A stretch of DNA of 64,000 bases from Hormiphora californensis (GCA_020137815.1 CM035350.1:5828001-5892000), one strand, 5' to 3'; shown: positions 1,511 through 51,780, numbered from the stretch's first letter. The notes: generated by a model from the sequence alone, not told the origin. Numbers and translations are program-made.

Positions 1511-4500
1511 CTCAAACTGGTATCTGCAAATGATGGTCCAGATGAGTCCGAGGGTGAGCTTATGGTTGCCCGACAAGATATCCTCATTACTGATATTCAC
1601 CAGCCGAACCTGAAAGGTGGTGCAAGGTGTTAGAAGTGGGCGTGAAACCTAGTGGATGGGTCAGTCAGGTAGAGTGAAAGTTGTTAGAGATAAGGAAAAC
1701 GGTCGGGTGGAATGAAAGTTGTTAAAGATAGAAAAAGGGAGGGAAATGCTTGCAATGGGGGGGGGGGGGGGGGGTGCTGAAACTGGGAAGATTGCACCTA
1801 CATAAATTCTCTGATTCTTGATCCAGGATAATGCGGTAACGAAATGGTCTTTAGTTGTTACAACGCCCGTCGATGTCTCCAATCTTTCGGTAATTTTAAA
1901 TGTTCTCCCTTTCCAAGAGGACCTTTTCAACCCATCATCTCCTGTTGTTGTGAACTCCATGGTAACGCCATGACTCCCAATCCTCCTCCTCTTACACTGA
2001 ACCTCCGGTCGTTCCAAGTAGATCCGTTTACAATTTTCCTCCTCTAACCGCGCCACTTTCTTGTTGTAGTGGATTGACGCGGCACACGGCTCAAACCTCC
2101 TCCGAAACATCCACTCGTACAGGGTGTCCACTGTGTCTGGGTTAGGGGTCTTCTTGTGAGACCCATGATGGACTCGTGTTGGAATATCGTCTATATGGAA
2201 CACGCTAGCCTCCTTTAACTTGTCAGGGGAGTTGAGTTGTTCACGAAGGAGCCGGTAGCAGGTTCTTTTACAGCGCCGAACCAGATCTGATTCAAATCTC
2301 TCCAGTTTACGGTGTAGACAAACCAGTTTGTTGATCAGCAGGGACCGGTCTTGGGGAACTACTGGTGATGGGGTTGTCATAGCAACAGGAAAACCATCTC
2401 CCCTAGCAACATGATCAGTACAAGGAAGGACAGGTGGTGTACGGCTGGTTTGCAAATAACTGGCATCTTGTGGTTTGTTTGTGTTGTACTCCGCAGCACA
2501 TTCGGCGTGTCTGTTATTGGCATCAATTTGATCTGCAGTAACTGTGCTGTTGCAGTCTCTAGAACTTTTAGTAGATGAATTGTGAAGGGATTCCGGGTTA
2601 GCAGTAGAAGGGTGAGCGGTTCTGGTAGTATGACGAAGAGAAGAAGAGGGATGGGTTTGAAGGGAGTCCAGAGTGGAAACTATCTCACTGCAAAGTAGAG
2701 TTATATCCTCTGCAGCTACCAGGTCCGGAGGAGTTGTACTAATGGCCGCTGTATCATTAAAACTGGGAAACACCTCCCCAGCTGGGGAGGGGAGAAAGCC
2801 TCCTGATCCCCGTGCTGCAAGATCATCCCTTATCTCCTCCATTGCCTCGGCCCGACCGAGGAGACCCCGGGTAAGGGCATCCCTGCTACGTCTCCGCTGC
2901 TCCGCTCCCGTATTAACACGCGACATCCAATCAAATAGCCGGGACAACATATTAGGAGGAAGTAGGAGGGTAGTAATACAAAGGGCGAGCGGATATGCGA
3001 TGTGCGTGTGCGTGTTCTCGCACACAAAGCAGCACAGAAAATCAGAGAGGAGAGAGTGCGGTTTCTGTTTTAAGTAAAGCACTCTATATGCTACAATTAT
3101 ATCCGGACAAGTAGACACAGGTCCGTTATTTTAGAACACGCCAACAGCACAGCCATGAGGAGTAAAGTATAGGATTCCGAGATCGAGTAGAAGTGCATCA
3201 TGTGTGTGTGTGTTGTGGGGAATTATAGAGGGAGAATGTTGAAAATGGTACACACACACAAGCACACAAGCACACACAAACACACGTCACTACTACACCC
3301 AGATTCTACACAACCAACTGATGTAGTGGCGTGGGAAGACATCAAGCTATACTACAAACCAAGCTAAAGGTCACCAACCACTATACTAGCTACAACCACT
3401 ATTATACTAGCTACAAACTATAACAGCCAGATTCAATATATTGCAGTGAGCAGCGGCCACTAGGTGTGAGTCGTCTACATGCTTTAGAGTTGAACTCTCT
3501 CTCAAATAGATATATTTGCATGGGGTAGAGAGGTCTTTATCACTTCCGCATTACGAGAGAGCACACACTCAGACAATATATATTGGGTTTGTAGACACAC
3601 AATGGACAGGAACCAGTTCTTTGAGACCCAAAACTGGCACAATTACGGACACTACCATGGGTGTGCAACTATAAACATGAGGAAAGCAACCAGGCACGTA
3701 CAAACAGTTCACACGTGTAATAACGGTAATGGAACTGGAAATAGCTCGATATAGAGCTGATAGATACAATGTGCGATACAGATATAGAGAGAGAGAGAGC
3801 AGGAGATTGCAGACAGTTCAATAGTTACACAGACAGGGAGCTGCGAAGGGAGGAGGAGGGAGAGCAGACAACATCGTTCAGAGAGGAGAATAAGAGTGTT
3901 AGATGTATTAAACACACTAACAGGTGTTACACTTAAGTATTTCTAGTTACAAAGCAGATTTGCACACAGCTGGAGATCATATCTAGCATCCTACGACAGG
4001 GCGTGCTGTAGTAATTGGGCTGGATTGAAAATACATGAGATGATCAATGTGATGCTATTTCTGGCCGCTACAATTCTCTGATCTCTCTCTCCTTTTCAAC
4101 TTTATAACACTTCATAGCTGCACAAATGATGTTATGTATGCAGACAGCTCTCTCTCTGTCTGGCTGTCACTCTCTTTGTTTCTCTCTCTCAGTTTCTCAT
4201 TTTGTTTCTCTCTCTCTTAGTTTCTCTAAGTGTCTCCCTCAAACCAATTGTTTACTATATGCTTCAATTGCTCGCATGGAAATTATACAGTGAAATTACA
4301 AAACAAGCTCTGTTGTAATAATAGCGGATAAAGCATGCTACAACAAACATCAAACTATTAACTCACTCTCTTAATTTCTTTATTTTCGATCTTTTAATTC
4401 TCTCTTTTCGATAACTCGTTCATTATCTCTCCCTCTCCTTCACTATCTCTCTCTATCTCTTTCAGTTCAGATGGTATAGAATAATGAGGGCAAGACTCCA

Positions 4501-11214: not shown

Positions 11215-11832
11215 GTGTTGGCTCGGGTGCAACTGGAGCTGCTGTCTCCTCGGGTTCAGGTTCAGGTTGTGGAGGTGGAGGTACATTGACAGTGGTATGG
11301 AGGGTTGTCGTGACAACGGTTCCATCACCCTCCTCCGTTGTCATGGTAGTACTGGACTCGGAGTGCACCTCACTACCCTCCCTGGACCAACTCTTTAGCT
11401 TGTAATTAGGGTCATTTCTATCAATCTTCTTCTCATTCAACTGAGATTCCCTCAGCTTCTTGTTTTTCCAATCAGGATCCTCCGCAGTCACTGTTCCCTC
11501 CGCAGCCTTGCCCTCCTTCAACTTTTTATCTTTCCAATCTGGGGTCTCCTCCGCGACAGTCCCCCCACTGGTTGTTGCTTTCTTCAGTTTTACCTCAAAT
11601 GGATTTGGGGGAGGTTCTTCTTCACCCCTTCTTCCGCCAGTCTTCTTCAAATTGGCCTTCCATGCGGGAACTTTACTTTCTTCCGTTATATTGGCACCGG
11701 TCGATTTTAGCTGTTTCTTCCATGGCGGATCATTTGTCCCGGTGGCAGAGGTGGATGCAGCCCCTGCCCCTTTTTTCCAGGAGGGCACGTCCCCCGGGGC
11801 CCGGTTCTGTTGCCGGTCCCGCCAAGACATAC
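11215..11832 (-). CDS. 618-bp phase 1-1 exon (or alternative first exon, ATG 11830) with repeated P-x-W-K..L-K motifs
   Basis: ctag|GT ATG TCT TGG acceptor and CCA ACA C|gtaagt donor; open frame MSWRDRQQ...APEPT. Confidence 0.8.
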
Positions 11833-16258: not shown

Positions 16259-17461
16259 TCTCTTACTCTCTCACTCTGTCTCTCTCTCTCTCTCACTCTG
16301 TCTCTCTCTCCCTCTCTGTCAGCAAGGCTCGCTTTGTAACATGAGGCTGTACATTTCATGTGGTGCATAAACTCGAGCAAAGGTTTATTTGCGAAATATA
16401 GGACTATGTAGAATTTCGGAGAGAGAGACGAGAGAGAGAAAAAAGAAACGAGAGAAGGGGAGAGAGAGGGGAGAGAGAGAGAGAGGAGAGAAGAAAAGAG
16501 GGGGTTTTGGGGGAAAAAAAAATTTTTTTTGGGGGGGGGGGGAAAAAAAAAAAAAAAACCGGGTTTTGGGGGGGGGGGAAAAAAAAAAAAATTTTTTGGG
16601 GGGGGGGGGCCCCCCCCAATCTTCCTTCTTCTTGCTCCCCCCAAACCCCCCAACCCCCCCCCACAACGCACTGTCAATCAAAGAAGAACCTCTCATGGAG
16701 GGGTCGCCGCTGTGCCCTAGGGTCCTTAGTCCTTCAACATATAATCACTCTAGAGTACTGCAAAATAAGAAAGCGATAGCTAGGAGCAAGTACATGAAAT
16801 ATTGGTGCGATTGTGTGAGGTTTTACAAGAAAAAGCCTACGTAAAGATTCAGGGGGGGCGACACGCTGCAGATATATTCACGTTATAAAACACGACCCAT
16901 CCCGTGTTGCATTCACCCCTCCCTCCTAGAACCCTGGTGGTGTGCCTCCTAGAACTCCCTCCTCCTCTGCCTCCTGCCTGGGGTGTTTAGATTGCATAAA
17001 ATGCTTTGATATGCTGCTCTAGCTACACATGATGAGAGAGTCACAACACAAACTTAATGCTAGCCCAGCAAGGGGGATCCAGACTCCAGAGTTTGTTTGT
17101 ATGTCAAACACCCCGCAGAGGGGGGTCCAGAGTAACGTTGCACGTAACATGATGTGTATAGGATATTCAGTATGGAACTGCTGCATATTATGTGTGTGGA
17201 ACACTACCAGGAACAATTGGGTGCTATAATGACGTCACGAGCTGCTGGTGAAATCACCAACAAGTCGCGACACTAATAAAACACTCAACATATATTGCAG
17301 GGCGGGGTTTTATATCGGCGACTAACTATCATGTGGAACACTATAGAAACCCTGGACTGATGACAGCCCTGGCCAACTCATATATAATTTACAATTAGTA
17401 TCAACTATAAGTAACCTAATTGTACAAAAGTCGTGTAACCTAATTGTATCAAAGAACCTAC

Positions 17462-20954: not shown

Positions 20955-23900
20955 CATCCTCCCCGTGGTCTACAAAGTCCCTCAAATCAACAGCTATCTC
21001 TACCAGCTCCCTCGGTGTTGAGGGTTGATCTTCCTCCGGCAGACAGCTTCCCTCCTCCACCAGGTTGATGCGGAGAGTAGCCGGTACAGGACTCTCCTCA
21101 GATGTCTTTAAGAGGGCGTTATGTTCCCGATGTGGAATGAGCTTATTAGCAAACAGTTGCCTCACCAGATCCTTCTTCACAGACCGGGGTAGATCCAACC
21201 GGACAATACCCTGTCTGATCTTATCAAACAGACTAGGACTCATCACAACAGTATCACGTGTCATCATGGTGTACCCATCATCATCTCCCCTTAGGGGAAC
21301 TGGAGTGACCCTCTTGTCAATATCCCCGATGTTAACACCCGGCATGTCCACCAGTTCAGGGGGAGAGATGGATCCTGCCTCCACCAACTCGTATCCCTCA
21401 TCATCGTCACCCAGTGGCACTGCTTTCACCTGTCTGGTGATGTGCTTGATGTTGATGGTCAGGTCAATGGGTGTCCCATCTGCCTTCTTAGCGGTGATAT
21501 TCAGCTCATCCCCCTCCAGTGTTTCCATCTTGTTGATCTCATCCTCCAGGATCTTCATAGTCTCCTCATCGACATTGCTCTCCCGGAGTGAGTCTATGAT
21601 CTGCTCCTTCATCTCGTCAGTAAGGGGCTCTTCAACCAGTTCGTATCCTTCTTCAGGCTCCATGGGGACGGACACAATGTTCTTGGTTATGTTCTTGATG
21701 TTGATGGTAAGATCTACCGGTGTTCCGTCCTTCTTAGAGGCAGTCAGCTTCACCTGATTCCCATCTACATTCTCGAGCTTGTCCACCTCCTCAAGTAGAA
21801 GTTCTATTGTCTCAGGGTCCAGTTTTGAGTTCTTTAGCGTCATTGTGATCTGGTCCTTCACCACATTCACTGAAGGTGCTTTGGATGTTTGAGGAGCCTG
21901 AGCGGGCTCTACCAGCTCAAACCCATCCTCAATGTCACCCAAGGAAACAGGGTTAATGTTTTTGGTGATATCATGGGTCTCTATATTCAGCTCAATGCTC
22001 TGGGAGGGTTTCTTTACATCAGGGACGGTTAGGAGCCGATCAAGACCCGCTGGAGCAGCTGATGGACTTTTGAGGGGAGATTTGAAGACAGGTGACAGAG
22101 GGATAACTTTAACGGGAGGAACTTCATCAAACACCATTTCGTATCCAGTATCCTCTTCTAACGGGACAGATTTGATATTTTTGGTGATGTTTTTGATGTT
22201 GATGGTCAGATTGATTGGAGTTCCATCCTTCTTCTTGGCATGTAGAGACATGGAATCACCCTGGACCTTGTCCAACTTATCGATCTCATCTTCCAACAAC
22301 GACACTGTCTCCTTGTCCAGGTTGCAACCCTTCAGGGACTCCTTCAGCTGCTCTTTCATCTCCTCAGTCACCGGCTCACACACCAGCTCGTAGCCGGAAT
22401 CTGTTTCCATGGGAACCGGGACAATGTTTTTACCAATCACATCTATTGGTAGGTCGGCAGGTGTTGCTTCAGTGGTCGGCTTCTCAGAAGATTTCAACTC
22501 AGGGACACCTTCATCTGCAGAGGGCTGTACAGGAGCTGATTCTGTAGTTGGCTTTTCGGCAATCTCTAGAACTGGAACCTCAAGATCTTCTGTAGCAACC
22601 GGAATGAGATCAATCGACTCAGGTTTAGGTTGTCCAGGAGTCTTAGTTGTGATTGTTTCTGTAACATTTTTGGTGATGTTTTTGATGTTGATGGTCAGGT
22701 TGATTGGAGTTCCATCCTTCTTCTTGGCATGTAGAGACATGGAATCACCCTGGACCTTGTCCAACTTATCGATCTCATCTTCCAACAACGACACCTGTCT
22801 CTTTGTCCAGGTTGCAACCCTTCAGGGACTCCTTCAGCTGCTCTTTCATCTCCTCAGTCACCGGCTCACACACCAGCTCGTAGCCGGAATCTGCTTCCAT
22901 GGGAACCGGGACAATGGTTTTACCAATCACATCCATTGGTAGGTCGGCAGGTGCTGCTTCAGTGGTCGGCTTCTCAGAAGATTTCAACTCAGGAACGCCT
23001 TCATCTGCAGAGGGTTGTACAGGAGCTGATTCTGTGGTTGGCTTTTCAGCAATCTCTAGAACTGGAACCTCAAGATCTTCTGTAGCAACCGGAATGACAT
23101 CAATCGACTCTGGTTTAGGTTGTCCAGGAGTCTTAGTTGTGATTGTCTCTGCAACATTTTTGGTGATGTTTTTGATGTTGATGGTCAGGTTGATTGGAGT
23201 TCCATCCTTCTTCTTGGCACGTAGAGACATGGAATCACCCTGGACCTTGTCCAACTTATCGATCTCATCTTCCAACAACGACACTGTCTCCTTGTCCAGG
23301 TTGCAACCCTTCAGGGACTCCTTCAGCTGCTCTTTCATCTCCTCAGTCACCGGCTCACACACCAGCTCGTAGCCGGAATCTGTTTCCATGGGAACCGGGA
23401 CAATGTTTTTACCAATCACATCCATTGGTAGGTCGGCAGGTGCTGCTTCAGTGGTCGGCTTCTCAGAAGATTTCAACTCAGGAACGCCTTCATCTGCAGA
23501 GGGCTGTACAGGAGCTGATTCTGTAGTTGGCTTTTCAGCAATCTCTAGAACTGGAACCTCAAGATCTTGCGTAACAACCGGAATGAGATCAATCGACTCT
23601 GGTTTAGGTTGTCCAGGAGTCTTAGTTGTGATTGTTTCTGTAACATTTTTGGTGATGTTTTTGATGTTGATGGTCAGATTGATTGGAGTTCCATCCTTCT
23701 TCTTGGCATGTAGACACATGGAATCACCCTGGACCTTGTCCAACTTATCGATCTCATCTTCCAACAACGACACTGTCTCTTTGTCCAGGTTACAACCCTT
23801 CAGGGACTCCTTCAGCTGCTCTTTCATCTCCTCAGTCACCGGCTCACACACCAGCTCGTAGCCGGAATCTGTTTCCATGGGAACCGGGACAATGTTTTTA

Positions 23901-26900
23901 CCAATCACATCCATTGGCAGGTCGGCAGGTGCTGCTTCAGTGGTCGGCTTCTCAGAAGATTTCAACTCAGGAACGCCTTCATCTGCTGAGGGCTGTACAG
24001 GAGCTGATTCTGTAGTTGGCTTTTCAGCAATCTCTAGAACTGGAACCTCAAGATCTTGCGTAACAACCGGAATGAGATCAATCGACTCTGGTTTAGGTTG
24101 TCCAGGAGTCTTAGTTGTGATTGTTTCTGTAACATTTTTGGTGATGTTTTTGATGTTGATGGTCAGGTTGATTGGAGTTCCATCCTTCTTCTTGGCATGT
24201 AGAGACATGGAATCACCCTGGACCTTGTCTAACTTATCGATCTCATCTTCCAACAACGACACTGCCTCTTTGTCCAGGTTGCAACCCTTCAGGGACTCCT
24301 TCAGCTGCTCTTTCATCTCCTCAGTCACCGGCTCACACACCAGCTCGTAGCCAGAATCTGTTTCCATGGGAACCGGGACAATGTTTTTACCAATCACATC
24401 CATTGGTAGGTCGGCAGGTGCTGCTTCAGTGGTCGGCTTCTCAGAAGATTTCAACTCAGGAACGCCTTCATCTGTAGAGGGATGTACAGGAGCTGATTCT
24501 GTGGTTGGCTTTTCAGCAATCTCTAGAACTGGAACCTCAAGATCTTGCTGTAGCAACCGGAATGAGATCAATAGGAACAGGCTCAGAAGGAGTGGACTGA
24601 AATAATGGATCCTGTGGACCCTCCCGCTGCTCTATATTGACATTCCTCAGAATATTCTGGATGTTTATTGTGAGGTTAACTGGGCTGCCGTCTGGTTTCA
24701 TCGCCGAGAGGGTAAGTTGATCTCCCTCGATACTGTCAACTTTGTCCAACTCCAGCTTCAGTAGATCCCTCGTCTCGTTATCTAGCCCTGAGTTTTCAAG
24801 AGAGTGCAGTATCTTTTCCTTGATGGCAGAAACCGGTGGGGCCGGTCCTGTTGTAGCAGGTGAAGTTGGGGCCAGGAGGACCGCCATATTTCCGACTTCT
24901 TCCACAGGAGAAGATTCCTTCTCTGGATTTTCCTCTTCGTGGGTTTCACGGTGGTAGAAAATGTGCTTGAGGTTGATTGTGAGTTCAATCGGAGTGCCGT
25001 CAGCCTTCTTAGATGTCAGTGTAACATGACCCATCATCAATGTTAGACAGATTGTCTATTTCTTTCGTTAAGAAGAGCTATTGTTTCACTGTCAAGGTCA
25101 CTTCCCTCCAGCGAGTTCAACAGCTGTGATCTGATGTCTTCACTTACTGGAACTGACTTGGGCGGCTCCTTCTCTCCTTCAGGAGTAGATCTGGAAATTC
25201 GAATGTCCTCCAGATGAGCAACAGTTGTAGAAGACTCTTCCTTAGTAACAGGTACATTTTCAGTCACAACAGGGGGCTCTTCCTTAGCAACAGGTGCATC
25301 TTCAGTCACAACAGGGGCCTCTTCCTTAGCAACTGGTGCATCCTCTGTCACAACAGGAGACTCTTCCTTAGCAACAGGTTCATCTTCAGTCACAACAGGA
25401 GGCTCTTCCTTAGCAACAGGTGCATCTTCAGTCACAACAGGAGGCTCTTCCTTAGCAACAGGTGCAACTTCAGTCACAATAGGGGCCTCTTCCTTAGCAA
25501 CAGGTACATCTTCAGTCACAACAGGAGGCTTTTCCTTAGCAACAGGTGCATCTTCAGTCACAACAGGGGCCTCTTCCTTAGCAACAGGTGCATCTTCAGT
25601 CGCAACAGGAGGCTCTTCCTTAGCAACAGGTGCATCTTCAGTCACAACAGGAGGTTCTTCCTTAGCAACAGGTACATCTTCAGTCACAACAGGAGATTCT
25701 TTCTTAGCAACAGGTGCATCTTCAGTCACAACAGGAGGCTCTTCGTTAGCAACAGGTGCATCTTCAGTCACAACAGGGGGCTCTTCCTTAGCAACAGGTA
25801 CATCTTCAGTCACAACAGGAGACTCTTCCTTAGCAACAGGTGCATCTTCAGTCACAACAGGAGACTCTTCCTTAGCAACAGGTGCATCTTCAGTCACAAC
25901 AGGGGGCTCTTCCTTAGCAACAGGTACATCTTCAGTCACAACAGGGGGCTCTTCCTTAGCAACAGGTATATCTTCAGTCACAACAGGAGGCTCTTCCTTA
26001 GCAACAGGTGCATCTTCAGTCACAACAGCAGGCTTTTCCTTAGCAACAGGTACATCTTCAGTCACAACAGGAGACTCTTCCTTAGCAACAGGTGCATCTT
26101 CAGTCACAACAGGAGACTCTTCCTTAGCAACAGGTACATCCTCTGTAACAGCTACCTTTTCAGGTTCTTTAGAAACTGGTTTGGAATCTGGGGCTTTGGC
26201 AGCCTCAGGGGCTTCAGTCGCCTGGAGACAAGGAACTCCTTCTTCAGTCGGTTGATCAAACACAATAGGAATATCTGAAATGAGCTGCTGAGATTTAGGC
26301 TCGGGTTCAGGTTCAGGCTCAGATTTCTTTTCCACATTCACGGTCACGTTTTCAACAATGTTCTCAATGTTGATAGTCAGGTTGACAGGTGACCCGTCTG
26401 ACTTGGTGGCTGACAAAGTGATCTGATTGTCTGTCACAGTTGTCTCCTTCCTCACCTCCTTCATCAGAAGAACCTTGGCTTCCTTGTCCAGAGGTGAGGA
26501 TTTAATGATGGCGATAATTTGCTCCTTCATCTCGGGTGTCAAGGGAACGGGAGAACTCAACGGAGTGGGCTCTGGAGTCTCTTCAGGAGTCTTCGACTCG
26601 GATGTCTTTGTTTTTCTACTCGGCCTCTCCGGTTTCTTTGGAGGTTCTTCAGCGTCCTTGTTTTCTGCTTGAGATTCGGGAGCATTAGTCTTTTTACGAC
26701 TAGGCCTCTCGGGTTTAGGCTCCGATTCAATGAGAGGCTTATCTTTAGGAACCTCGGAATCAATCTTATCAACAGTGGTCGATTCTTTGGTATCCGGTTC
26801 AGATTGTATTTCAGCAGTATCAGGACTCACCAGTTCTTTAGATTCTGGTTTAGTATCTGGGGCTTCAGCGGCCACGGGAGCTTCTGAAGCTTCTAAACAA

Positions 26901-29900
26901 GGAATACCCTCTTCAGTCGGCTGATCCTTTGAAGCAGGAACGTCTTCAGACACAACAAGTTCAGGTTCAGTCTCAGATTTCTTCTCTACATTTACAGTCA
27001 CATTTTCAACAATGTTCTCAATGTTGATAGTCAGGTTGACAGGTGACCCGTCTGACTTGGTGGCTGACAAAGTGATCTGATTGTCTGTCACAGTTGTCTC
27101 CTTCCTCACCTCCTTCATCAGAAGAACCTTGGCTTCCTTGTCCAGATCAGAGGTCTTTAGGATGGCGATAATTTGCTCCTTCATCTCGGGTGTCAAGGGA
27201 ACGGGAGAACTCGACGGAATGGGCTCTGGAGTCTCTTCAGGAGTCTTCGACTCGGATGTCTTGGTTTTTCTACTCGGCCTCTCCGGTTTCTTTGGAGGTT
27301 CAACAGCGTCCTTATCTTCTACTGGAGATTCAGGAGCACCAGCCTTTTTACGACTAGGCCTCTCGGGTTTAGGCTCCGACTCAGTAGGAGGGAAATCTTT
27401 GACTTTTTCCTTGGTATCTGGCTCCTTTGAATCTGGTCCGGAAACTGGAGCATTCGCTGCAGCAGGAGCCTCAGATATATCGATGCTAGGAACGTCTTGT
27501 TCAGTTGGCTTTTCTTTTGGGAGAGACACATCTTTAGCCATTCTTGGTTCAAGTTTGTCAGGAGCCTCGGCCGCCACGGGAGCTTCAGAGGCCTTTATAC
27601 AGGGAACACTTTCTTCTGTTGGTTGCTCTTTAACAGGAGGACTATCCTCTGTCACAACAGGGGGTTCTTCTGTGTTCTCCGCTTTGCAAGGTTTCTTGGA
27701 ATCAGGTTCACTAACTGGCAGTTCCGCCGCCACGGGAGCTTCTGAAGCTTCCAGACAGGGAATACCCTCATCAGTTGGCGTGTTTTTGACGGGAGGAACT
27801 TCTTCAGAAACTACTGGCTGAGATTCTTTTAGTTGAGGTTCTTTATCCACTGGGACCTCTTCAGAAACAGACATGGGCTGATCTTCAGACGGCTCAGGCT
27901 TAGAAACCGGAGCACTTTCTGTGATTTCTTTCGGTGGAGCTTCGACTGCATCAGGTACTTCTAAGGGAACGGGAGAACTCGACGGAGTTGGCTCTGGAGG
28001 CTGCTTCTGGTCCTCAGAAGTTGGAGCTTCTGCAGCAACCGGGGCTTCGCTCGGTAGAACACATGGTACTCCTTCATCAACTGGTTTTGCTTCAGGAGCA
28101 TCTTCGGCAACAGGCTTCTCAGGCTTTGAATCCGGAGTCTTGGCAGCCACGGGAGCATCAGAGGCCTTTAGGGAAGGAAGATCCGCCTCAGTTGGCTGCT
28201 CTGTCACAGGAGGGACATCTTCTGTAACAATCGGCTCAGATTTCGGCTCAGATTTCTTCTCCACTTTCACAGTCACATTTTCAACAATGTTCCCAATGTT
28301 GATAGTCAGGTTGACAGGTGACCCATCTGACTTGGTGGCTGACAAAGTGATCTGATTGTCTGTCACAGTTGTCCCCTTCCTCACCTCCTTCATCAGAAGA
28401 ACCTTGGCTTCCTTGTCCAGATCAGATGTCTTTAGGATGGCGATAATTTGCTCCTTCATCTCGGGTGTCAAGGGAACGGGAGAACTCGACGGAGTGGGTT
28501 CTGGAGTCTGCTTTTTGTCATCGGAAGTTGGAGCTTCTGCAGCAACCGGGGCTTCGCTCGGTAGAACAAAGGGTACTCCTTCATCAACTGGTTTTACTTC
28601 AGGAGCATCTTCGGTAACAGGCTTCTCAGGCTCCTTTGAGTCTGGTTTTTGAAGAGGGAGGGGAGATCCCGGTTTTAAATCCGGCGTCTCAGCCGCCACA
28701 GGAGCATTAGAGGCCTTTAGGGAAGGAAGATCCGCCTCAGTTGGCTGCTCTGTCACAGGAGGGACATCTTCTGTAACAATCGGTTCAGATTTCGGCTCAG
28801 ATTTCTTTTCCACATTCACGGTCACATTTTCAACAATGTTCTCAATGTTGATAGTCAGGTTGACAGGTGACCCATCTGACTTGGTGGCTGACAAAGTGAT
28901 CTGATTGTCTGTCACAGTTGTCGCCTTCCTCACCTCCTTCATCAGAAGAACCTTGGCTTCCTTGTCCAGATCAGATGTCTTTAGGATGGCGATAATTTGC
29001 TCCTTCATCTCAGGTGTCAAGGGAACCGGAGAACTCGACGGAGTAGGCGCTGTAGTCTGCTTCTTGTCATCAGAAGTTGGAGCTTCTGCAGCAACCGGGG
29101 CTTCGCTCGGTAGAACACATGGTACTACTTCATCAGCTGGTTTTACTTCAGGAGCATCTTCGGCAACAGGCTTCTCAGGCTCCTTTGAGTCCGGTGTCTC
29201 AGCCGCCACAGGAGCTCCAGAAGCCTTTAGGGAAGGAAGATCCGCCTCAATTGGCTGCTCTGTCACAGGAGGGACATCTTCTGTAACAATCGGTTCAGAT
29301 TTCGGCTCAGATTTCTTTTCCACATTCACGGTCACATTTTCAACAATGTTCTCAATGTTGATAGTCAGGTTGACAGGTGACCCATCTGACTTGGTGGCTG
29401 ATAAAGTGATCTGATTGTCTGTCACAGTTATCTCCTTCCTCACCTCCTTCATCAGAAGAACCTTGGCTTCCTTGTCCAGATCAGAGGTCTTTAGGATGGC
29501 GATAATTTGCTCCTTCATTTCGGGTGTCAAGGGAACGGGAGAACTCGACGGAGTGGGCTCTGGAGTCTGCTTCTTGTCATCAGAAGGCTTAGCAACATCG
29601 CTGATGGAATCTGGCTTAGCTTCGGGGGCTGAAACAGGCTTCACAGGATCTGCTACAGGCGACTGTTTCCCAGCTTCAATCGGCTTAGTTTTCTCTGGCG
29701 CTTTCTGAGAAGGTGGTGCTTCAGAAGCCTTGACACAGGGGACGCCTTCTTCATTTGGCTGCTCTTTGACAGGAGGAACATCTTCAGTTACGACAGGGGG
29801 TTCTTCTGTGTCGCCAGATTGAGAGGGTTCATCAGATTTCTTAGAATCGGGTTCAATAACTGGCAGTTCCGCCGCCACGGGAGCTTCTGAAGCTTCCAGA

Positions 29901-32900
29901 AGAGGGATATTATCCTCTGTTGGCTGGTCCTTTGTTGGAGGAACGTTCTCAGTCACAATCGGCTGAGGTTTGGATTCCGAATCTTTTTCGCCTGTTACTG
30001 TCACATTCTGAACTAGGTTCTTAACATCAACAGTCAGGTTGACAGGTGACCCATCCGATTTTGTAGCTGACAAAACCACCTGGTAGTCTGAAATTTCTGT
30101 CTCCTTCCTCACCTCCTTCATTAGAAGAACCTTGGCTTCCTTGTCCAGAGGTGAGGTTTTAATGATGGCGATAATTTGCTCCTTCATCTCGGGTGTCAAG
30201 GGAACCGGAGAACTCGACGGAGTGGGCTCTGGCGTCTGCTTCTTGTCATCAGAAGTTGGAGCTTCAGCAGCAACCGGGGCTTCGCTCGGTAGAACGAAGG
30301 GTACTCCTTCATCAACTGGTTTTACTTCAGGAGCGTCTTCGGAAACAGGTTTCTCGGGCTTTGAGTCCGGAGTCTTGGCCGCCACGGGAGCTTCAGAAGC
30401 CTTTAGAGAAGGAAGATCCACCTCAGTTGGCTGCTCTGTCACGGGAGGGACATCTTCTGCAACAATCGGTTCAGATTTCTTTTCCACATTCACGGTCACA
30501 TTTTCAACAATGTTCTCAATGTTGATAGTCAGGTTGACAGGTGACCCATCTGACTTGGTGGCTGACAAAGTGATCTGATTGTCTGTCACAGTTGTCTCCT
30601 TCCTCACCTCCTTCATCAGAAGAACCTTGGCTTCCTTGTCCAGATCAGATGTCTTTAGGATGGCGATAATTTGCTCCTTCATCTCGGGTGTCAAGGGAAC
30701 GGGAGAACTCGACGGAGTGGGCTCTGGAGTCTGCTTCTTGTCATCAGAAGTTGGAGCTTCTGCAGCAACCGGAGCTTCGCTCGGTAGAACGAAGTGTACT
30801 CCTTCATCAACTGGTTTTACTTCAGGAGCATCAACAACAAGAACTGGATTCTTAGGTTTACCAGAAACTGTCCACATCTTGTTCTACCACGGTTTTTGGT
30901 TTCTTCCCCTCCGGTAGACCCACTGAAACCTCAGCAGAAAGCTGTCTTCTTGTCAGAACTATCACAGTTGATGGTTAGGTTTACAGGACTGCCATCCTTC
31001 TTGGTGGTTTCCAAGGTAACAGAGTCCTCAGTCAGGTCAGTTAGAGTACCAATCTGGATAGCGAGAAGGTCCTTGGTTTCCTTGTCCAAGTTATCCATGT
31101 TCTGAACCAGTTCAACCAACCGAATTTTCGTCTCCTCAGTAGCATCTGGTTTTTCAGGCTCTTTTGAGTCTGGTTTGTGAACAGGAATGGAAGATTTCGG
31201 CTTAGAATCTGGCGTCTCAGCCGCCACAGGAGCTTCAGAGGCCTTTAGGGAAGGAAGATCTACCTCTGTTGGCTGCTCTTTCACAGAAGGAACATCTTCG
31301 ATAACAATCGGCTCAGATTTCGGCTCAGATTTTTTCTCCACATTCACGGTCACGTTTTCAACAATGTTCTCAATGTTGATAGTCAGGTTGACAGGTGACC
31401 CATCTGACTTGGTGGCTGACAAAGTGATCTGATTGTCTGTCACAGTTGTCTCCTTCCTCACCTCCTTCATCAGAAGAACCTTGGCTTCCTTGTCCAGAGG
31501 TGAGGTTTTAATGATGGCGATAATTTGATCCTTCATCTCGGGTGTCAAGGGAACGGGAGAACTCGACGGAGTGGGCTCTGGAGTCTGCTTCTTGTCATCA
31601 GAAGTTGGAGCTTCTGCAGCAACCGGGGCTTCGCTCGGTAGAACAAAGGGTACTCCTTCATCAACTGGTTTTACTTCAGGAGCATCAACAACAAGAACTG
31701 GATTCTTAGGTTTACCAGAAACTGTCACATCTTGTTCCACCACGGTTTTTGGTTTCTTCCCCTCCGGTTGACCAACTGAAACCTCAGCAGAAAGCTGTCT
31801 TTTGTCAGAACTATCACAGTTGATGGTTAGGTTTACAGGACTGCCATCCTTCTTGGTGGTTTCCAAGGTAACAGAGTCCTCGGTCAGGTCAGTTAGAGTT
31901 CCAATCTGGATAGCGAGAAGGTCCTTGGTTTCCTTGTCCAAGTTATCCATGTTCTGAACCAGTTCAACCAACCGAATTTTCGTCTCCTCAGTAGGAGGTT
32001 TCTGAGGCTCTTTTGAGTCTGGTATGTGAACAGGATCAGGCTTCTCAGGCTTTGAATCCGGAGTCTCACCCGCCACGGGAGCTTCAGAAGCCTTTAGAGA
32101 AGGAAGATCCACCTCAGTTGGCTGTTCTGTCACGGGAATGACATCTTCTGTAACTGTAAACTGTGGTTGTTTCGGCTCTATTTTCACGGTCACATTTTCA
32201 ACAATGTTCCCAATGTTGATAGTCAAGTTAACAGGTGACCCATCTGACTTGGTGGCCGACAAAGTGATCTGATTGTCTGTCACAGTTGTCTCCTTCCTCA
32301 CCTCCTTCATCAGAAGAACCTTGGCTTCCCTGTCCAGAGGTGAGGTTTTAATGATGGCGATAATTTGCTCCTTCATCTCAGGTGTCAAGGGAACGGGAGA
32401 ACTCGACTGAGTGGGCTCTGGAGTCTGCTTCTTGTCATCAGAAGTTGGAGCTTCTGCAGCAACCGGGGCTTCGCTCGGTAGAACGAAGTGTACTCCTTCA
32501 TCAACTGGTTTTGCTTCAGGAGCATCAACAACAAGAACCGGCTTCTTAGGTTTACCAGAAACTGCCACATCTTGTTCCACCACGGTTTTTGGTTTCTTCC
32601 CCTCCGGTTGACCAACTGAAACCTCAGCAGAAAGCTGTCTTTTGTCAGAACTATCACAGTTGATGGTTAGGTTTACAGGACTGCCATCCTTCTTGGTGGT
32701 TTCCAAGGTAACAGAGTCCTCGGTCAGGTCAGTTAGAGTTCCAATCTGGATAGCGAGAAGGTCCTTGGTTTCCTTGTCCAAGTTATCCATGTTCTGAACC
32801 AGTTCAACCAACCGAATTTTCGTCTCCTCAGTAGGAGGTTTCTGAGGCTCTTTTGAGTCTGGTATGTGAACAGGATCAGGCTTCTCAGGCTTTGAATCCG

Positions 32901-35900
32901 GAGTCTCACCCGCCACGGGAGCTTCAGAAGCCTTTAGAGAAGGAAGATCCACCTCAGTTGGCTGTTCTGTCACGGGAATGACATCTTCTGTAACTGTAAA
33001 CTGTGGTTGTTTCGGCTCTATTTTCACGGTCACATTTTCAACAATGTTCCCAATGTTGATAGTCAAGTTAACAGGTGACCCATCTGACTTGGTGGCCGAC
33101 AAAGTGATCTGATTGTCTGTCACAGTTGTCTCCTTCCTCACCTCCTTCATCAGAAGAACCTTGGCTTCCCTGTCCAGAGGTGAGGTTTTAATGATGGTGA
33201 TAATTTGCTCCTTCATCTCAGGTGTCAAGGGAACGGGAGAACTCGACTGAGTGGGCTCTGGAGTCTGCTTCTTGTCATCAGAAGTTGGAGCTTCTGCAGC
33301 AACCGGGGCTTCGCTCGGTAGAACGAAGTGTACTCCTTCATCAACTGGTTTTGCTTCAGGAGCATCAACAACAAGAACCGGCTTCTTAGGTTTACCAGAA
33401 ACTGCCACATCTTGTTCTACCACGGTTTTTGGTTTCTTCCCCTCCGGTTGACCAACTGAAACCTCAGCAGAAACCTGTCTTTTGTCAGAACTATCACAGT
33501 TGATGGTTAGGTTTACAGGACTACCATCCTTCTTGGTGGTTTCCAAGGTAACAGAGTCCTCGGTCAGGTCAGTTAGAGTACCAATCTGGATAGCGAGAAG
33601 GTCCTTGGTTTCCTTGTCCAAGTTATCCATGTTCTGAACCAGTTCAACCAACCGAATTTTCGTCTCCTCAGTAGCATCTGGTTTCTTCGAACTTGTCTTA
33701 CAATCAGGAGCATCGGCCGCCACAGGAGCCTCAGAGGCTACAACGGAGGGAACTTCTCCTTCAGTCATCTTCACAACCGGGGCAGGGGCTTCAAACACTC
33801 CCAATTTTCTCTCCCTGCGGTTTGGTGCAACATCAACACTTTGATCTACAACCTTCTTTTTCTTAGGCTGATCAGGGTTGACAGAAACATCAGCAGTCAT
33901 CGAGAGCTTCTCTTTACCCGGAACATCCACAGTCACATGGGTATTGAGGAACTGACAATTGATATTCATTTTCACAGGTGTACCATCAGCCTTCTCTGTT
34001 TCCAATGTCACCGTATCTCCGGTCATGTGAGTCAGGGAGGCGATCTGACAAGTTAGGAGATCTTTTGTTTCCTTATCCATCTTATCATTATTGTTGATGA
34101 CACCCACCAGCTGCTCCTTCATCTCTGGGGTGAGGACCCTCTGTTCTCCGTCAACTGACATTTCGGGAGACAGTGCAAGTTCCGGGAAGGGGCTGGCGGT
34201 GCTGCTAAATGAAGACCTACTAAATGAACCTCTACTGCTGCTCCCAGTGAGAGAGCTGTTTGTTATCTCAACCCTGTATTCCCGGGGTCTCTCCCCAACC
34301 GTAAACACGACATCACCATCTTCCATTACGTAGGCTCTGTCCAGTAGAGATTGAATGACCTGAACCTGTTCCATCTTGATAAGTTCAGAGGAAGAGAGAT
34401 TGTTGATCACCTTCACCTTTAACTCATCTTCAGGAATGATTGGAACGCGGGAATCTTCCTTGGGGAGACCGAAAGAGAACTTGATGGGGATGTTCTGGAA
34501 CGAAACTTCAATCTTGACCGAGTCACGCTGTTTAATATAATCGCCCGAATAAAACTTCTCTATCAATAATTTCTTCTTTTCTGCGGTGAATTTGGATTGT
34601 CCAATGGCTTCAGTTCCCACGATCATCACCTTAATTGGCACGAACTTGCTCTTAGCACGACAATCCTTGTAGTTGACCTTCACATCGGTGATTCTGTAAT
34701 CAAGCCCGTACTTGATGTCTAGTACCACGTTGTTTCCCATTACAGTGATGGTATTGTTCTCTAACTTGAAGTTGTTGTCCACCAGCTTGCTAATCAGGGT
34801 TATCTTGGCAGTGTCGTCCAGGGCCAACATGGTGACTACCTTGATAATGGAGTGCTTCAGTCGGAGCATGGAGGGGGTCAGGGGACTTTGATCATACACA
34901 TCCTCTTCGTGGATTGTCATGGCCTCAATGGACGCTTGGAATGCCTTGTCCTGAGGTTTGGACTTGTCATCCAGGATCTTTACATTGAAACTATCCGATG
35001 AGGTGATGGAACCCCTGCTGTCCCTTCGCAGTCCTTCGAGGATAATCTTGCTCCCCTCACGGCGGAACCGGCCGTTCTTGACAGCCCTCACTGCCTGTTT
35101 CCGGTACTCCTGGTTGATGGTTCCCTTCTGGATCTCCGCAATAACGAAATCCTTCACCTGTTCTTCACACATGTCCTCGGGGACGTAGAAGTACGGTGTT
35201 GCAATCTTATCCGATCCAGCAGCATCCAATGCGGATGTATCTACATCGAAATTTAACTCCTCTCTGGTGTCTCCCTCTTTGACAAGGACGGACAGTCGAC
35301 GTCCCTCTAAACGGTAGTTATTGTTGTAGATGGAGGACAGGATAGAGTTTCTTCGGCCGGCGTTCATTTTCTTGTTAGCTGTGAAGCCATCGATCATTTC
35401 GATGAGACTGGCAGTACCAATGTTCGTCTCTCTCTGTATTATTTGTGGGTAAAGTACCCCGGGGAGGTTGAGAGTGATGTTTTGGGTTGTTTTTCCAGAT
35501 TTCATGGTGATGGTGACCTTGTGTAGACCCACATCACAGTTGTCTTCCTGAATAGCCTGGTGAAGACGATCTTTCACGGAGTCAGGGAACTTCAGCCGTC
35601 CTATTGCCTGCTGGATAAACTGTTTCGTGGAGTTGTGGAGCACTTTTGGGTTTTCAGGATCCTTGCCGGGTAGTGTAAACTTCGCCTGGAGATCTGGGCC
35701 AGCATAAATCACCAGGTTGAGGTCTTTACAAGTGAAACTCTCGTGCTCAATTGCCTCGATCAACAAATCTTTCTGAACTTCAGAAATTTTAGTATGACTT
35801 TTCACAAACTCCTTCACACGGTCGATCCTCGCTCGAAGTGAAGCTAAGTCTTTCACAGCACCCTTGAACCCGCTCTTTTTGAGGGCAGCAAACTTGGAAC

Positions 35901-36567
35901 CAGCTCCTAGCTTACCGCCGAATTTCCTATTTTTGGGCGGGCTACTCGGGGGCGTTTTTTGTTTCCCAAACTTCCGTCCTCCAGGAGGACTAGATTTGGG
36001 ACTTTTTCTTACTGGAATACCGGTCGATGATCCACGACCAGATTTCGGTGATCCAGCGGGGGATGTTTTTGGGGAGGGAATCTTCCGGACATGTCCTTTC
36101 GGACTAACAACTTTTGGGACAACAGTGACAGTAGTCCGGGTGGAAGTTCTCACCGTCGCCTCTGCAACAATTGTTTTTGGATATCTTGGTGCTGATCTTC
36201 TCACCTCAATTGGGGAGACTTGTTTCGGTTCGGGCGCTGCTTTTGGAGAAGAAGGAGTTTTCTTTGGGTTGACGGGAGATGGGGTGGATACCGGGCTGAA
36301 CCTATTACTGGTACCGAATGTTGAATGTCCGAATTTAGAGAACCTGTCAGTAGAGGCGGTGCTGCTTGAAGACGGGGAGGATTCGGGAGAGAACTTGTTA
36401 GCGAGAGAGCCGATCCGGGAAGGTTGTTTCTCCCAGGGCTTCCTGACAGGCTTCTCTTCGGTATCTGCTTTTTTCTGCCACGAATCAACTAGCCTATTTT
36501 TGGGGGCACCTACGCTACCCTTGCCTGCAAGCGTAACTCCGCGCCTAGGATTATTATTATCAGACAT
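20955..36567 (-). CDS. Giant (~15.6 kb) intronless exon encoding ~5200 aa of repeat modules and PEVK-like linkers; probable N-terminal extension of the CH-domain gene
   Basis: ORFs 30931..36651, 25043..30877, 24537..25040, 22775..24571 and 20851..22794 continue the same protein repeats. Breaks are 1-bp insertions relative to sister repeat copies. Starts cataaag|ATG TCT GAT (36567) and ends GAG GAT G|gtgagt (20955, phase 1). Confidence 0.85.
22170..24570 (-). repeat. 489-bp coding tandem repeat (~5 near-identical copies, 163 aa)
   Basis: Equivalent positions at 22899, 23388, 23877, 24366 (period 489). Confidence 0.93.
25230..26150 (-). repeat. 42-bp coding minisatellite (~22 x VVTEDAPVAKEEPP), PEVK-like
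   Basis: 14-aa repeat visible in ORF 25043..30877. Confidence 0.95.
31400..33670 (-). repeat. 840-bp coding tandem repeat (~2.7 near-identical copies, 280 aa)
   Basis: Equivalent positions at 31571, 32411, 33251 (period 840). Confidence 0.93.
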
Positions 36568-43054: not shown

Positions 43055-44830
43055 CCAGGAATCAGATAGAACGGCTGAAAATGTGACTGTAAATTGATGG
43101 TGTATTCATCAATCTAAATGCAACTCCCGGTGATGCATCATTGATCATGTAGATACTATTACTGATTACTGAAATAAATGAAGAATAAGCCCTGGGAAAT
43201 TCTCGGTGAGGGCTCTCTATCTGAACCATCTCCATTCCGTATCAATCTGCCTCTTTTCGCTAAAGTAAGTGAAATTCCAAAACATCCTCCCCTCTTGCCA
43301 TACAACCTCCCGGCTCCCCACCCTCATAATCTACCCACACAAACAAGAGAAAGAGAGGGACGGTCTTTCCTCCTTCATTATACCCCTCTCTATCCCTACT
43401 CCTCTTCAACCTCCCCTTGATCCTCCCCTTACTATTCCTCTCCTCCATATCTTGTCCGTATCTACTATCCCCATTCATCTTCCTCTCCTTCATCTTCCTC
43501 GGAGTCTAAAGTGCATACTCCCCCGAGTAAAGTGTAGTATCAATTTAGTCTCTCTCATTTGTACTAACCCTTCTTTACCTCTCCCAGGATTCCGATAGAA
43601 CGGCTGAAAATTTGATACTCTGGATTGGTGGTGCATTTATCAATCTAAAAGTAACTTCCAGTGACTCGAATTCATCATGTGGACACTATTACTGATTACT
43701 GATGTGAAGAAAAGCCCTGGGGCACTCTCGGTGAGGGCTGTTTCTCTATCTGAACCATCTCCGCTCCATATCCATCTGCTTCTTTTCGCAGTAAGTCAGC
43801 TTTATTTTAAACAGTTTTCCCCTTCTACCATACAACCCCCACTCCTACACACCCACATAATCTACCCATACTTTATACCCACCCCTCCGTCACATCCTTC
43901 TACATTCATTTCCCCCTTGGCCTTTATTCCTCCCCTCAATCCCCCTCCATCTCCCCCTTTTTCCTTCTCTCCTTTTTCCTCTACTCATTCATTCCCCCTT
44001 CATCTCCCTCTCCTTCCGTTCCTTCATTCCCCCTTTTATCCTACCACTTTACCCCCCCCCTTCGACCTTCGCCCTCCTTCGTCCACGCTTTCTAGATAGT
44101 AGATACCCATTCATTTCCCACTTCATCCCCCATCTCCTCCTTCATTCCCCCTTTATCCTCTCCTCCATTTCCCCTCTCCTCCATATCCCGTCCGTATCCA
44201 CTATAAGATCGAGTAAAGTGTGTATCAATTTAGTCTCTCTCATTTGTTCTAACCCTTCTTTACCTCTCCCAGGATTCCGATAGAACGGCTGAAAATTTGA
44301 TATTCTGGATTGGTGGTGCATTTATCAATCTAAAAGTAACTTCCAGTGACTCGAATTTATCATGTGGACACTATTACTGATTACTGAAGTAAAGAAAAGC
44401 CCTGGGGCACTCTCGGTGAGGGCTGTTTCTCTATCTGAACCATCTCCGCTCCATATCCATCTGCTTCTTTTCGCAGTAAGTCAGCCTCCCTTATTCCAAA
44501 CAGTTTTCCCCTTCTACCATACAACCCCCGCTCCACCACTCCCACATAATCTACCCATACTGTATACCCAGTGGGTATTACCCACCCCTCCGTCACATCC
44601 TTCTACATTCATTTCCCCTTGGCCTGCTATTCCTCCCCTCGAATCCCCTCCATCTCCCCCTTTTTCCTTCTCTCCTTCCTCTACTCATTCATTCCCTCTT
44701 CATATCCCCCTTCCATCCGTTTCTTCATTTCCCCATTTTATCCTACCCCTTGATCCCCCCGTCGACCTTCGCCCTCCTTCGTCCACCCTTTCTAGATGGT
44801 AGATACCCATTCATCCTCCATCTCCTCCTT
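43055..44830. repeat. Three degenerate tandem copies (~530-690 bp) with pyrimidine-rich tails
   Basis: GATAGAACGGCTGAAAAT recurs at ~43064, ~43594, ~44279; paralogous ORFs at 43677 and 44362. Confidence 0.85.
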
Positions 44831-47420: not shown

Positions 47421-48338
47421 GATGCAGGCTACAGCGAGTATGACTTCTCTTCCGCTCCTTGGTTCTCCTACAGGTGAAGTAGTCGGATCCTCAGTCCTCA
47501 CCCAGGTTGTATAAGACAGTATCGATTGTTTAAGGGCTAAAGCCCTGGTGCTAAAGTATTTATTTCTGGATCCCTAGATCCAAGAGCATATTTTATCAAT
47601 CTGCAGTAAGCAGAGACAGTATATTTCATCATCCGATTTAAATGTTGTTTAACTAACAAGACCTACCTTCAGAAAAATACCATCTTGCAATAATAATTGG
47701 AAATCCTTGGTATAGAACTAACCGCTTTTGAAACGAGAGTTAGTGAGACGAAGTCCGCACCAAGTGATGCAAGTAGTCAAGACCTAACAGAACTCGTGTT
47801 GTTCTTTAAAATATGGACAATGAAAAGCGGACAATAAATGTATATTTGTATTTGTATTTGTATTTGTATTTTGGCGTTTTGCGGTTGTCTTGACAGTTGT
47901 CCAGACGCCTCACTCCAGATCTCTTTTAGTGCCGGATCTGGGATACCTCATAGACCATAGTTCATACCCCAAATTCAAAAACGATCCAGGGTCAGGGTAA
48001 TCCTGGTTTACTAATGACTGTTAATGGCGTGAGTTTTGGTGATCAGGTTGGTAAACGACTTGTAACAGCCGTTTTCAACAAAAAATAACCATTCTCTCGT
48101 AACCGGTAACAGCCAATAAACTTCAATTCCTGGCTGAAGTCTGAAGAATTCCAAACTTTGTACAATGTGCGAATGGGAAAAAAGGGTTCTGCCTAATCAA
48201 AAATTAAATGAATCACCTCACACGTTGAGAATTGGTACATTCACTCCGTTTACACCACAAAACCAACAGTCTACTCAAGTCACATGCTGTATGAAACATT
48301 ATCCCATTAGAGATAACACAACTCAAATATTTTGTAGG

Positions 48339-51300: not shown

Positions 51301-51381
51301 AATGTTGGGTATGTGCTGATGGACCGGAAAGATAACCATTGTGGTGTCACTACTGATGCCACTTATGTTGTTGTGAAGTAG
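48339..51381 (+). CDS. Papain-family (C1A) cysteine protease of the 26/29-kDa proteinase (CfaD-like) type, 11 coding exons
   Basis: Exons 48339-48495, 48608-48753, 48852-48973, 49092-49203, 49282-49363, 49628-49859, 50051-50154, 50260-50383, 50604-50733, 50880-51063, 51194-51381. Signal peptide [15 protein letters not shown], long N-terminal domain, ERFNIN-like I29 propeptide, [23 protein letters not shown]; AATAAA at ~51425 and ~51434. Confidence 0.95.
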
Positions 51382-51780
51382 CTATGTTGTAGAGAGCGGA
51401 ACTATTATTATATGTGGCCTGAGAAATAAATGCAATAAATTGATTTAGAGTTGGACTAAATTAATTATATACCACCAACTGATTAAATTATTTGTTGAGC
51501 GGGATCTCTAAACATATTTTTGTTAGGAATGTGTGTTGTGGTAGTTTTCTATTCTTTTGTAATGCAACAAAACATGTGTCATAGAGTAAACAGTTACCGC
51601 TGTGAGCTGTTGCATGCTGCATTTTGCATCCTATCCCGCGTCAAGGTGATATGACCTGCGCGCAATCTCCACACGACTCAGAACCAGCCTGCTTCGCGCG
51701 AAATTCCCTAATTTCATAGCGGTGGCTGATAATTTGTAACTTCGATGCCGTTTTAGCCGCGCAAAGCGCGCTTTCGTTTA

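Follow-up and report, generated by a model that had tools for sequence, protein, structure and literature searches.

A giant exon of repeated helix-helix-strand-strand-strand modules and its likely splicing to an actin-binding gene

Spectraplakins (Shot, MACF1, dystonin) offer the closest precedent for the gene organization reported here. In one published account (10.1101/122010), they are described as using alternative lead exons that give a full or a truncated CH1 domain, and as carrying a single exon of ~3,000 amino acids (aa) with about 40 plectin (plakin) repeats, each a ~38-aa unit in which a beta-hairpin precedes two helices. The window analyzed in this study, a 64,000-nucleotide (nt) stretch of DNA (GCA_020137815.1 CM035350.1:5828001-5892000), contains a giant coding exon on its minus strand. 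This exon encodes 32 copies of a ~65-aa module with the element order helix-helix-strand-strand-strand, and it is likely spliced, as judged from sequence, onto a downstream actin-binding (CH1) protein. The two systems appear to share an N-terminal CH1 of the plectin/MACF1/dystrophin type, several candidate lead exons and one exon, many kilobases long, that encodes 30-40 small alpha/beta repeats. They differ in that the repeat exon described here precedes the actin-binding domain, whereas that of spectraplakins lies between the plakin domain and the rod. Furthermore, our module places its helices first and is set apart by long acidic linkers, whereas the 38-aa plakin repeats stand in close tandem; neither unit size and element order nor Pfam and PDB-sequence matches identify the module as a plakin repeat.

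Titin (connectin) provides a second comparison. Giant size, small domains that alternate with Pro/Glu/Val/Lys-rich linkers, and a repeat number that varies between lineages are common to both. In contrast, our modules are alpha/beta units rather than beta-sandwiches, no Ig, Fn3 or kinase match was found in the window, the linkers fall short of a PEVK composition, and the anchor is likely a CH domain. By analogy, the exon product may work like a titin without being one. A third precedent comes from ankyrin and nesprin/MSP300, in which a single very large exon makes a giant isoform, disordered for the most part, of an otherwise ordinary cytoskeletal adaptor. The exon in our window would likewise create a giant isoform of a cytoskeletal adaptor, but the ankyrin and nesprin exons lie inside their genes and, for the most part, hold no folded repeat, and no sequence relation to them was found. 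Spectrin repeats (~106-aa bundles) and ankyrin repeats (33-aa helix-turn-helix units) are entirely helical, whereas the module described here has three strands per 65 aa.

The giant exon and its modules

Positions 36567-20955 of the minus strand can be read as one frame of 15,613 nt from an ATG to a phase-1 splice donor, and this region is likely a single exon of ~15.6 kb. With six single-base insertions removed, it comprises 5,202 codons plus 1 nt. As assembled, it is spread over five long open pieces (161-1,931 codons) between 36651 and 20851, with no stop codon inside. An earlier note on this DNA had placed the low end of the repeats at 20955, which is exactly the last base ahead of the GT of the donor. 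The minus strand, the six frame breaks, an exon start (ATG at 36567) that lies ~240 codons further upstream, and the downstream actin-binding gene all go beyond what that note described. The exon has the following features.

20955..36567, minus: giant coding exon, ATG to phase-1 donor; unbroken orthologous open reading frames (ORFs) of 4,362-6,450 aa
36388..36567, minus: N-terminal tip (aa 1-60), which contains a K/R-P-W motif and is conserved in five orthologues at 35-55% identity
35863..36387, minus: basic Ser/Pro/Lys-rich low-complexity segment; net charge +0.17 per residue, 15 S/T-P sites
35662..35856, minus: old module d1; 66-75% identity across species, strands unresolved in the model
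35455..35646, minus: old module d2; 62-73% identity across species
35233..35427, minus: old module d3; 46-65% identity across species
34963..35181, minus: old module d4; 36-48% identity across species, long hairpin loop, resolved in part
34663..34887, minus: old module d5; two helices and four strands, predicted local distance difference test (pLDDT) 86-90
34459..34650, minus: old module d6; pLDDT 87-90
34252..34443, minus: old module d7; pLDDT 76-88
21442..34146, minus: 24 young modules in an array, joined by acidic linkers rich in Pro/Glu/Val; its higher-order units measure 840 nt and 489 nt
30870..30952, minus: two single-base insertions relative to a sibling copy
25235..26140, minus: 42-nt (14-aa) tandem repeat, 21.6 copies, a Glu/Pro/Val/Ala-rich linker
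25030..25080, minus: two frame steps within one module, deduced from the protein pattern
24545..24548, minus: single-base insertion relative to a sibling copy
22177..24572, minus: 489-nt (163-aa) tandem repeat; each of its 4.9 copies holds one module
22794..22797, minus: single-base insertion relative to a sibling copy, within a module
21052..21255, minus: C-terminal old module dC; 64-68% profile probability to d2
20955..21010, minus: conserved exon-end motif and phase-1 splice donor (G|gtgagt)

If the six frame breaks were genuine, the exon would be a pseudo-exon in the source organism, and the assembly does show all six. However, every break is a +1 insertion, four of them lengthen a base run, and four are single-base insertions that are absent from sibling copies 95-98% identical to them. 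The remaining two fall inside one module near 25055 that has no close DNA sibling, and were placed from the protein pattern. Moreover, the five long pieces are free of stops, and five orthologous ORFs of >4,300 aa have an unbroken frame. We therefore regard a pseudo-exon as highly improbable; the six insertions are probably long-read sequencing errors in what would be one open frame. The higher-order units of 840, 489 and 42 nt are each a multiple of three. Two further measures carry less information: an indel-phase test, in which 278 of 572 gaps are multiples of three, is noisy, and the 16 synonymous versus 20 non-synonymous variants among 10 young copies are suggestive at most.

The earlier note had proposed about 32 module copies, with young copies in the center, about seven diverged copies on the N-terminal side and one at the C-terminal end. 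Profile searches and controls uphold both this count and this arrangement (24 young modules within 34146-21442, d1-d7 within 35856-34252, and dC at 21255-21052). A profile made from the window's own copies returns 26 matches, which represent the 24 young modules, two being split by frame breaks. These young modules score 85-107 bits, carry a K-x-D-G-[ST]-P turn ahead of the last strand, and fall into ten copies of LTPEMK type, four of EETKIR type, five of VTEEMK type and five singletons.

Recognition of the eight diverged copies required a broader comparison. The window-only young profile does not pick them up unaided (best 4.7 bits), and when single copies were scored against the young profile, d4-d7 and dC exceeded all shuffles, d1 and d3 failed to do so, and d2 was outscored by its own reversal. 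When the young and diverged alignments were compared with each other, they matched with 88% probability (E 3e-6, 54 columns). With a leave-one-out profile that includes orthologues, all eight score 20-33 over 36-58 columns, compared to 8-12 for reversed sequences and at most 9-20 for shuffled ones (10 column shuffles each); these figures are somewhat favorable, given that the module boundaries were set by eye and column shuffles are lenient. The description of these copies as highly diverged needs qualification. They are indeed relatives of the module, but rather than decayed they are old, position-specific and strongly constrained, and d1 and d2 are the most conserved part of the protein (62-75% identity across species).

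Linkers between modules range from ~10 to 500 aa in length, are drawn to 83% from P/E/V/K/S/T/A/D with 9% large hydrophobic residues, and are acidic (net -0.11). Their P/E/V/K content is 53% in the window and 38-51% in four orthologues. The Ser/Pro segment near the N terminus is likewise basic (+0.06 to +0.20) in each of the four orthologues measured. In the linkers of the C-terminal modules (21250-24500, minus strand), a short hydrophobic strand is repeatedly followed by an acidic motif, G-Y-E-L/M-V, which also occurs 2-6 times in orthologues; it is possible that this motif forms an extra hairpin or serves as a tyrosine phosphorylation site.

Fold, family and relatives of the module

AlphaFold, when supplied with 15 young copies, predicts for the young module two helices (residues 7-19 and 24-36) followed by three strands (39-41, 44-50 and 56-62), with a mean pLDDT of 80 (five models, 71-80). 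This is the element order that the earlier note had read from the sequence. For the 544-aa old region, modeled with five orthologues, the mean pLDDT is 59. Within it, d5, d6 and d7 show the same order as the young module at a pLDDT of about 80-90, and d2 and d3 do so at about 50; d1 and d4 have both helices, and their strands are unresolved or partial. Accordingly, the idea that the diverged copies share the fold holds with confidence for d5-d7 and tentatively for d2 and d3, but does not extend to the strands of d1 and d4. The picture of beads on a string with disordered linkers likewise fits the models, in that the module is predicted to fold alone, the linkers are acidic and of low complexity, and the modules are better conserved than the linkers.

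No confident match to a described family appeared in family, PDB-sequence or fold searches. Among 17 single modules, no Pfam family matches more than one (best E 0.008) and no NCBIfam family more than two (best E 0.004), and Pfam gives no match for the d1-d7 region. Foldseek searches of PDB and BFVD yielded no match with an E of 0.001 or lower; VIA-align returned nothing at Z 8 or above, with no plakin repeat domain among the matches listed; and the ESM Atlas gave no usable match for two queries. The 544-aa model is a poor test of d6-d7 in such fold searches. There were no Rfam matches. Ig/Fn3, spectrin and ankyrin repeats have no Pfam match in module ORFs or single modules, and, as with plectin repeats, the module resembles none of them in unit size or element order, as the earlier note had said.

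Several weak candidates were set aside. Three whole-ORF Pfam scores exceed the cut-off, namely those of the 489-nt repeat ORF to RNA_pol_Rpb1_6 (41 bits) and to SpoVG (33 bits), and that to Ntox35 (37 and 25 bits on the relatives P0003 and P0004). We read each as a sum of small scores across copies that are nearly identical, and none comes back on single modules. Paramyx_P_V_C (24.5 bits, below cut-off), with the Hendra P domain aligned across 47 residues at Z 4.2, and DEK-C, matched in its helices alone (E 0.002), are partial amphipathic-helix matches.

The best structural likeness is to Hsp70 subdomain IIB, which also has two helices followed by a small beta meander. This raises the question of whether the module descends remotely, with its elements re-ordered, from Hsp70 IIB or from another known unit, the plectin repeat, whose hairpin and two helices are similar ingredients. 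The topology does match that of Hsp70 IIB, at Z 5.0-5.5 and a root-mean-square deviation of 3.0 with 60 of 65 residues aligned. However, identity is 5-15%, there is no ATPase context, Hsp70 has no match in Pfam or PDB-sequence searches of the modules, and by VIA-align's own calibration Z values below 8 are common, the range of common arrangements. For plectin repeats, Pfam has no match even in ORFs whose 7-8 young copies let weak scores accumulate, and plakin is absent among PDB sequence matches at E up to 10. We consider derivation from either unit quite unlikely. The module is likely a new domain family, and the predicted structures fall short of establishing a new fold.

A profile search of 1.84 billion representatives gave 18 matches, six of which are true (P0001-P0006, E 7e-18 or better), and further searches added the relatives P0019-P0023. 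All of these are ORFs from ENA. By identity over d1-d7 (46-86%), the relatives represent five other lineages (P0002; P0019, P0004 and P0020; P0003, P0021 and P0022; P0023; and P0005, with P0006 probably on the same contig). Orthologous exons that encode 4,362-6,450 aa are present in at least four other genomes. Full-length relatives share one plan, comprising the conserved tip, the basic Ser/Pro segment, d1-d7, a young array and the exon-end motif. Module dC is present in P0002, P0003, P0019, P0022 and P0006, and was not seen at the end of P0023. The other 12 of the 18 matches (P0007-P0018) were rejected, as they cover only part of the profile and none has an 8-bit stretch against the enlarged profile; most of the seven scanned in Pfam are bacterial surface-repeat proteins. 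Nine prokaryotic or metagenomic loci match the strands only (7-11 bits). No viral contig of 45 and no sequence of 589 in a first metagenome scan matched, and no prokaryotic or viral relative survived checking.

The number of young copies varies among orthologues (33, 22-23, 27 and 20-21). We built a quick tree of 131 young modules over 65 columns, leaving out two split window copies and redundant proteins; many of its forks are open. Central copies form species-specific clades (for the window, one of 10 copies at 99 plus two of four copies each), and copies of the C-terminal flank pair by position across species. From these sequences, the central copies appear to have expanded separately in each lineage, giving an array with a homogenized center and conserved edges. 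For positional orthologues in three species pairs, modules are conserved at 78, 66 and 49%, versus 63, 37 and 19% for the neighboring linkers. P0003, P0021 and P0022 are near-identical and yet differ in their arrays (22 versus 23 young copies, and one breaks off at 2,825 aa), which would reflect copy-number variation or assembly collapse in one lineage.

Likely splicing to a CH1 gene

The giant exon ends in G|gtgagt, in phase 1. In all eight homologous ORFs that reach the exon-end motif, similarity stops at a G or C, after which K comes next; in the window, the two residues are G and E. This is the trace expected when an xGT-RAG phase-1 donor is read through, as deduced from the homologues' proteins. 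In the in-frame join model, the exon joins without a stop either to eight exons plus CH1 or to CH1 directly, and all 12 modeled downstream introns are GT-AG. The downstream features are as follows.

11215..11830, minus: exon B, a likely alternative first exon of 205 aa that has repeated P-x-W-K motifs and a phase-1 donor
10003-9815, 9732-9574, 9167-8964, 8787-8575, minus: first four of eight symmetric phase-1 exons, one second-repeat copy each
8463-8239, 8008-7769, 7705-7496, 7425-7240, minus: last four of these eight exons
6133-6072, 5372-5280, 5118-5038, minus: CH1 exons a-c
1802..2950, minus: exon C, a likely alternative first exon of 383 aa whose phase-0 donor leads into the last CH1 exon without a stop
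1511..1609, minus: last CH1 exon; the gene runs on past the left end of the window

The last CH1 exon matches plectin (E 6e-9), MACF1 (1e-8), beta-spectrin (3e-8) and dystrophin (4e-8). Dystrophin and plectin lead for exon a (E 0.1), filamin comes first for exon b (E 0.002), and exon c has no clear match. For three of the exons, plectin, MACF1 or dystrophin ranks first or close to it. All four exons join without a stop, and Pfam scores CH on one of them at 18.1 bits, below the cut-off of 26. These matches point to a CH1 actin-binding domain of the spectrin superfamily. The second repeat (~55 aa) spans 7240-10003 on the minus strand, directly before CH1, and its pattern suggests the order strand-helix-strand-strand-helix. 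It is unrelated to the first module (profile probability <1%) and has no Pfam or PDB match; no homologue was found among 7,994 candidates of 140-2,000 aa, which is weak evidence.

Three candidate first exons (the giant exon, B and C) are compatible by phase. Exon B has about six P-x-W/F-K motifs, some followed by L-K-K/S-T, which bear a likeness to short actin-binding motifs that has no Pfam support. Exon C sits inside a CH1 intron, has no family match, and would likely give an isoform without most of CH1.

Rather than being spliced to this gene, the giant exon might be a separate gene, or end in a small terminal exon of its own, and merely lie upstream. Several points that weigh against the joining agree with such an arrangement: the joining is read from genomic phase and sequence, a phase match by chance has a probability of one in three, and 11 kb separate the giant exon from the next modeled one, an interval that holds three further open phase-1 candidates of low complexity. 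Exon B also has an ATG of its own. Furthermore, no spliced full-length protein, and hence no fusion, was found among proteins of 2,399-7,634 aa, where all five matches are exon-only ORFs. However, the trace of the phase-1 donor is conserved, its phase fits both downstream acceptors (10003 and 6133), and exon B has a donor of matching phase and, like the tip of the giant exon, a P-W motif, as would be expected of alternative lead exons. We judge separate genes to be unlikely, and the giant exon is likely spliced onto the CH1 protein. Within the intron behind the giant exon, positions 16370-16780 are homopolymer-rich and look like low-quality sequence.

The window is eukaryotic in character, with short GT-AG introns, CT/AG microsatellites and 40-50% GC. 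It holds a spliced papain-family cathepsin gene (about 48100-51400, plus strand; I29 propeptide and C1 peptidase exons) and two retroelement ORFs, one with a zinc knuckle and aspartyl protease (56980-59607, minus) and one with a reverse transcriptase fragment (60101-61363, plus). Near-identical ORF translations reveal local duplications at 300-1400, at 43665-44800, and at 52181-52492 with 53865-54176, the last pair being inverted.

A proposed extensible tether or a possible multivalent array

We propose, as an evenly balanced judgment, that the product is a giant N-terminal isoform of a spectrin-superfamily cytolinker that works as an extensible tether or spacer. CH1, perhaps with CH2, would hold F-actin at the inner end, and the conserved outer head, made of the N-terminal tip, the basic Ser/Pro segment and d1-d7 packed with short linkers, would dock on something else, for instance another filament, microtubules or a cortical plaque. 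The ~2,900 linker residues between these ends would act as an entropic spring with a contour length of ~1.1 micrometres at 0.38 nm per residue. The 20-33 young modules would serve as beads that can stand in for one another; they would make the chain stiffer and could absorb shocks by unfolding. The tether's length would be tuned in each lineage by gain or loss of central units, and short isoforms from exons B and C would lack it.

Several observations are consistent with this proposal. The species-specific clades of central copies, combined with flanks that pair by position, fit beads that can replace one another, with how many there are being of more consequence than which they are, and a variable copy number between fixed ends suits a spacer of tuned length. 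Support also comes from the predicted fold of the young module and d5-d7, the homology of all eight old modules, the shared architecture of the orthologues, and the greater conservation of modules than of acidic linkers. For the attachment to actin, the proposal draws on the conserved donor trace, the in-frame joins to CH1, the GT-AG introns and the spectraplakin precedent for alternative leads.

Other points count against the tether, in addition to those raised above for the joining. Elasticity is read from composition alone, and the linkers' P/E/V/K content of 53% compares with about 70% in the PEVK segment of titin. In the AlphaFold model of the N-terminal region, obtained from only six sequences, 225 of 544 residues have a pLDDT below 50. 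The C-terminal part of the gene, with any CH2, plakin domain, spectrin rod, EF hands or GAS2 domain, lies beyond the window, and filamin, dystrophin and beta-spectrin stay candidates besides spectraplakin. Finally, the docking partner of the exon product is putative.

The same gene could also operate in another way, with each bead binding a filament or partner weakly, as plakin repeats do for intermediate filaments, and the array bundling or clustering its targets by avidity; elasticity would then be secondary. Across 72 non-redundant young copies, polar positions of surface type are strongly kept (K in helix 1, D-x-E-T, and the K-x-D-G-T-P turn), which is more than a passive bead needs, and the identity held by d1 and d2 points in the same direction. 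The plakin-repeat region of Shot, a single-exon array of about 40 binding repeats, is a precedent (10.1101/122010). On the other hand, recent duplication and homogenization also explain the conservation of young copies, and linkers that vary from ~10 to 500 aa do not fit a filament register. Multivalent binding is thus a serious though doubtful contender to the extensible tether.

We found no description in the literature of this protein or of a gene design that combines a giant repeat exon, a second repeat and CH, and four motif strings of the module retrieved no papers; subscription papers or supplementary gene tables could name it. The module is apparently an undescribed, lineage-restricted domain family with >150 natural copies. 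It provides a new small domain for single-molecule mechanics, and its array is a clean case of a homogenized center with conserved edges.

More speculatively, an early-branching animal lineage, probably the comb jellies, which reportedly have no titin-family genes, might have built its own titin analogue by placing an exon of 4,400-6,400 residues, composed of alpha/beta beads of a new kind and springs of acidic sequence, before an actin-binding cytolinker, a scenario that we put forward only tentatively. The GC content, the microsatellites, the short introns and a small clade in which several genomes are sequenced without annotation make ctenophores the suspected source. Ctenophores are reported to lack connectitin (PMC12198301), and to lack key Z-disc genes and yet have giant smooth muscle and one striated muscle type (PMC5095125). 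If the scenario is true, the analogue would be a micrometre-scale elastic filament for an independently evolved muscle, and if the clade is Ctenophora, the module gene would be a concrete candidate for muscle elasticity and spacing.

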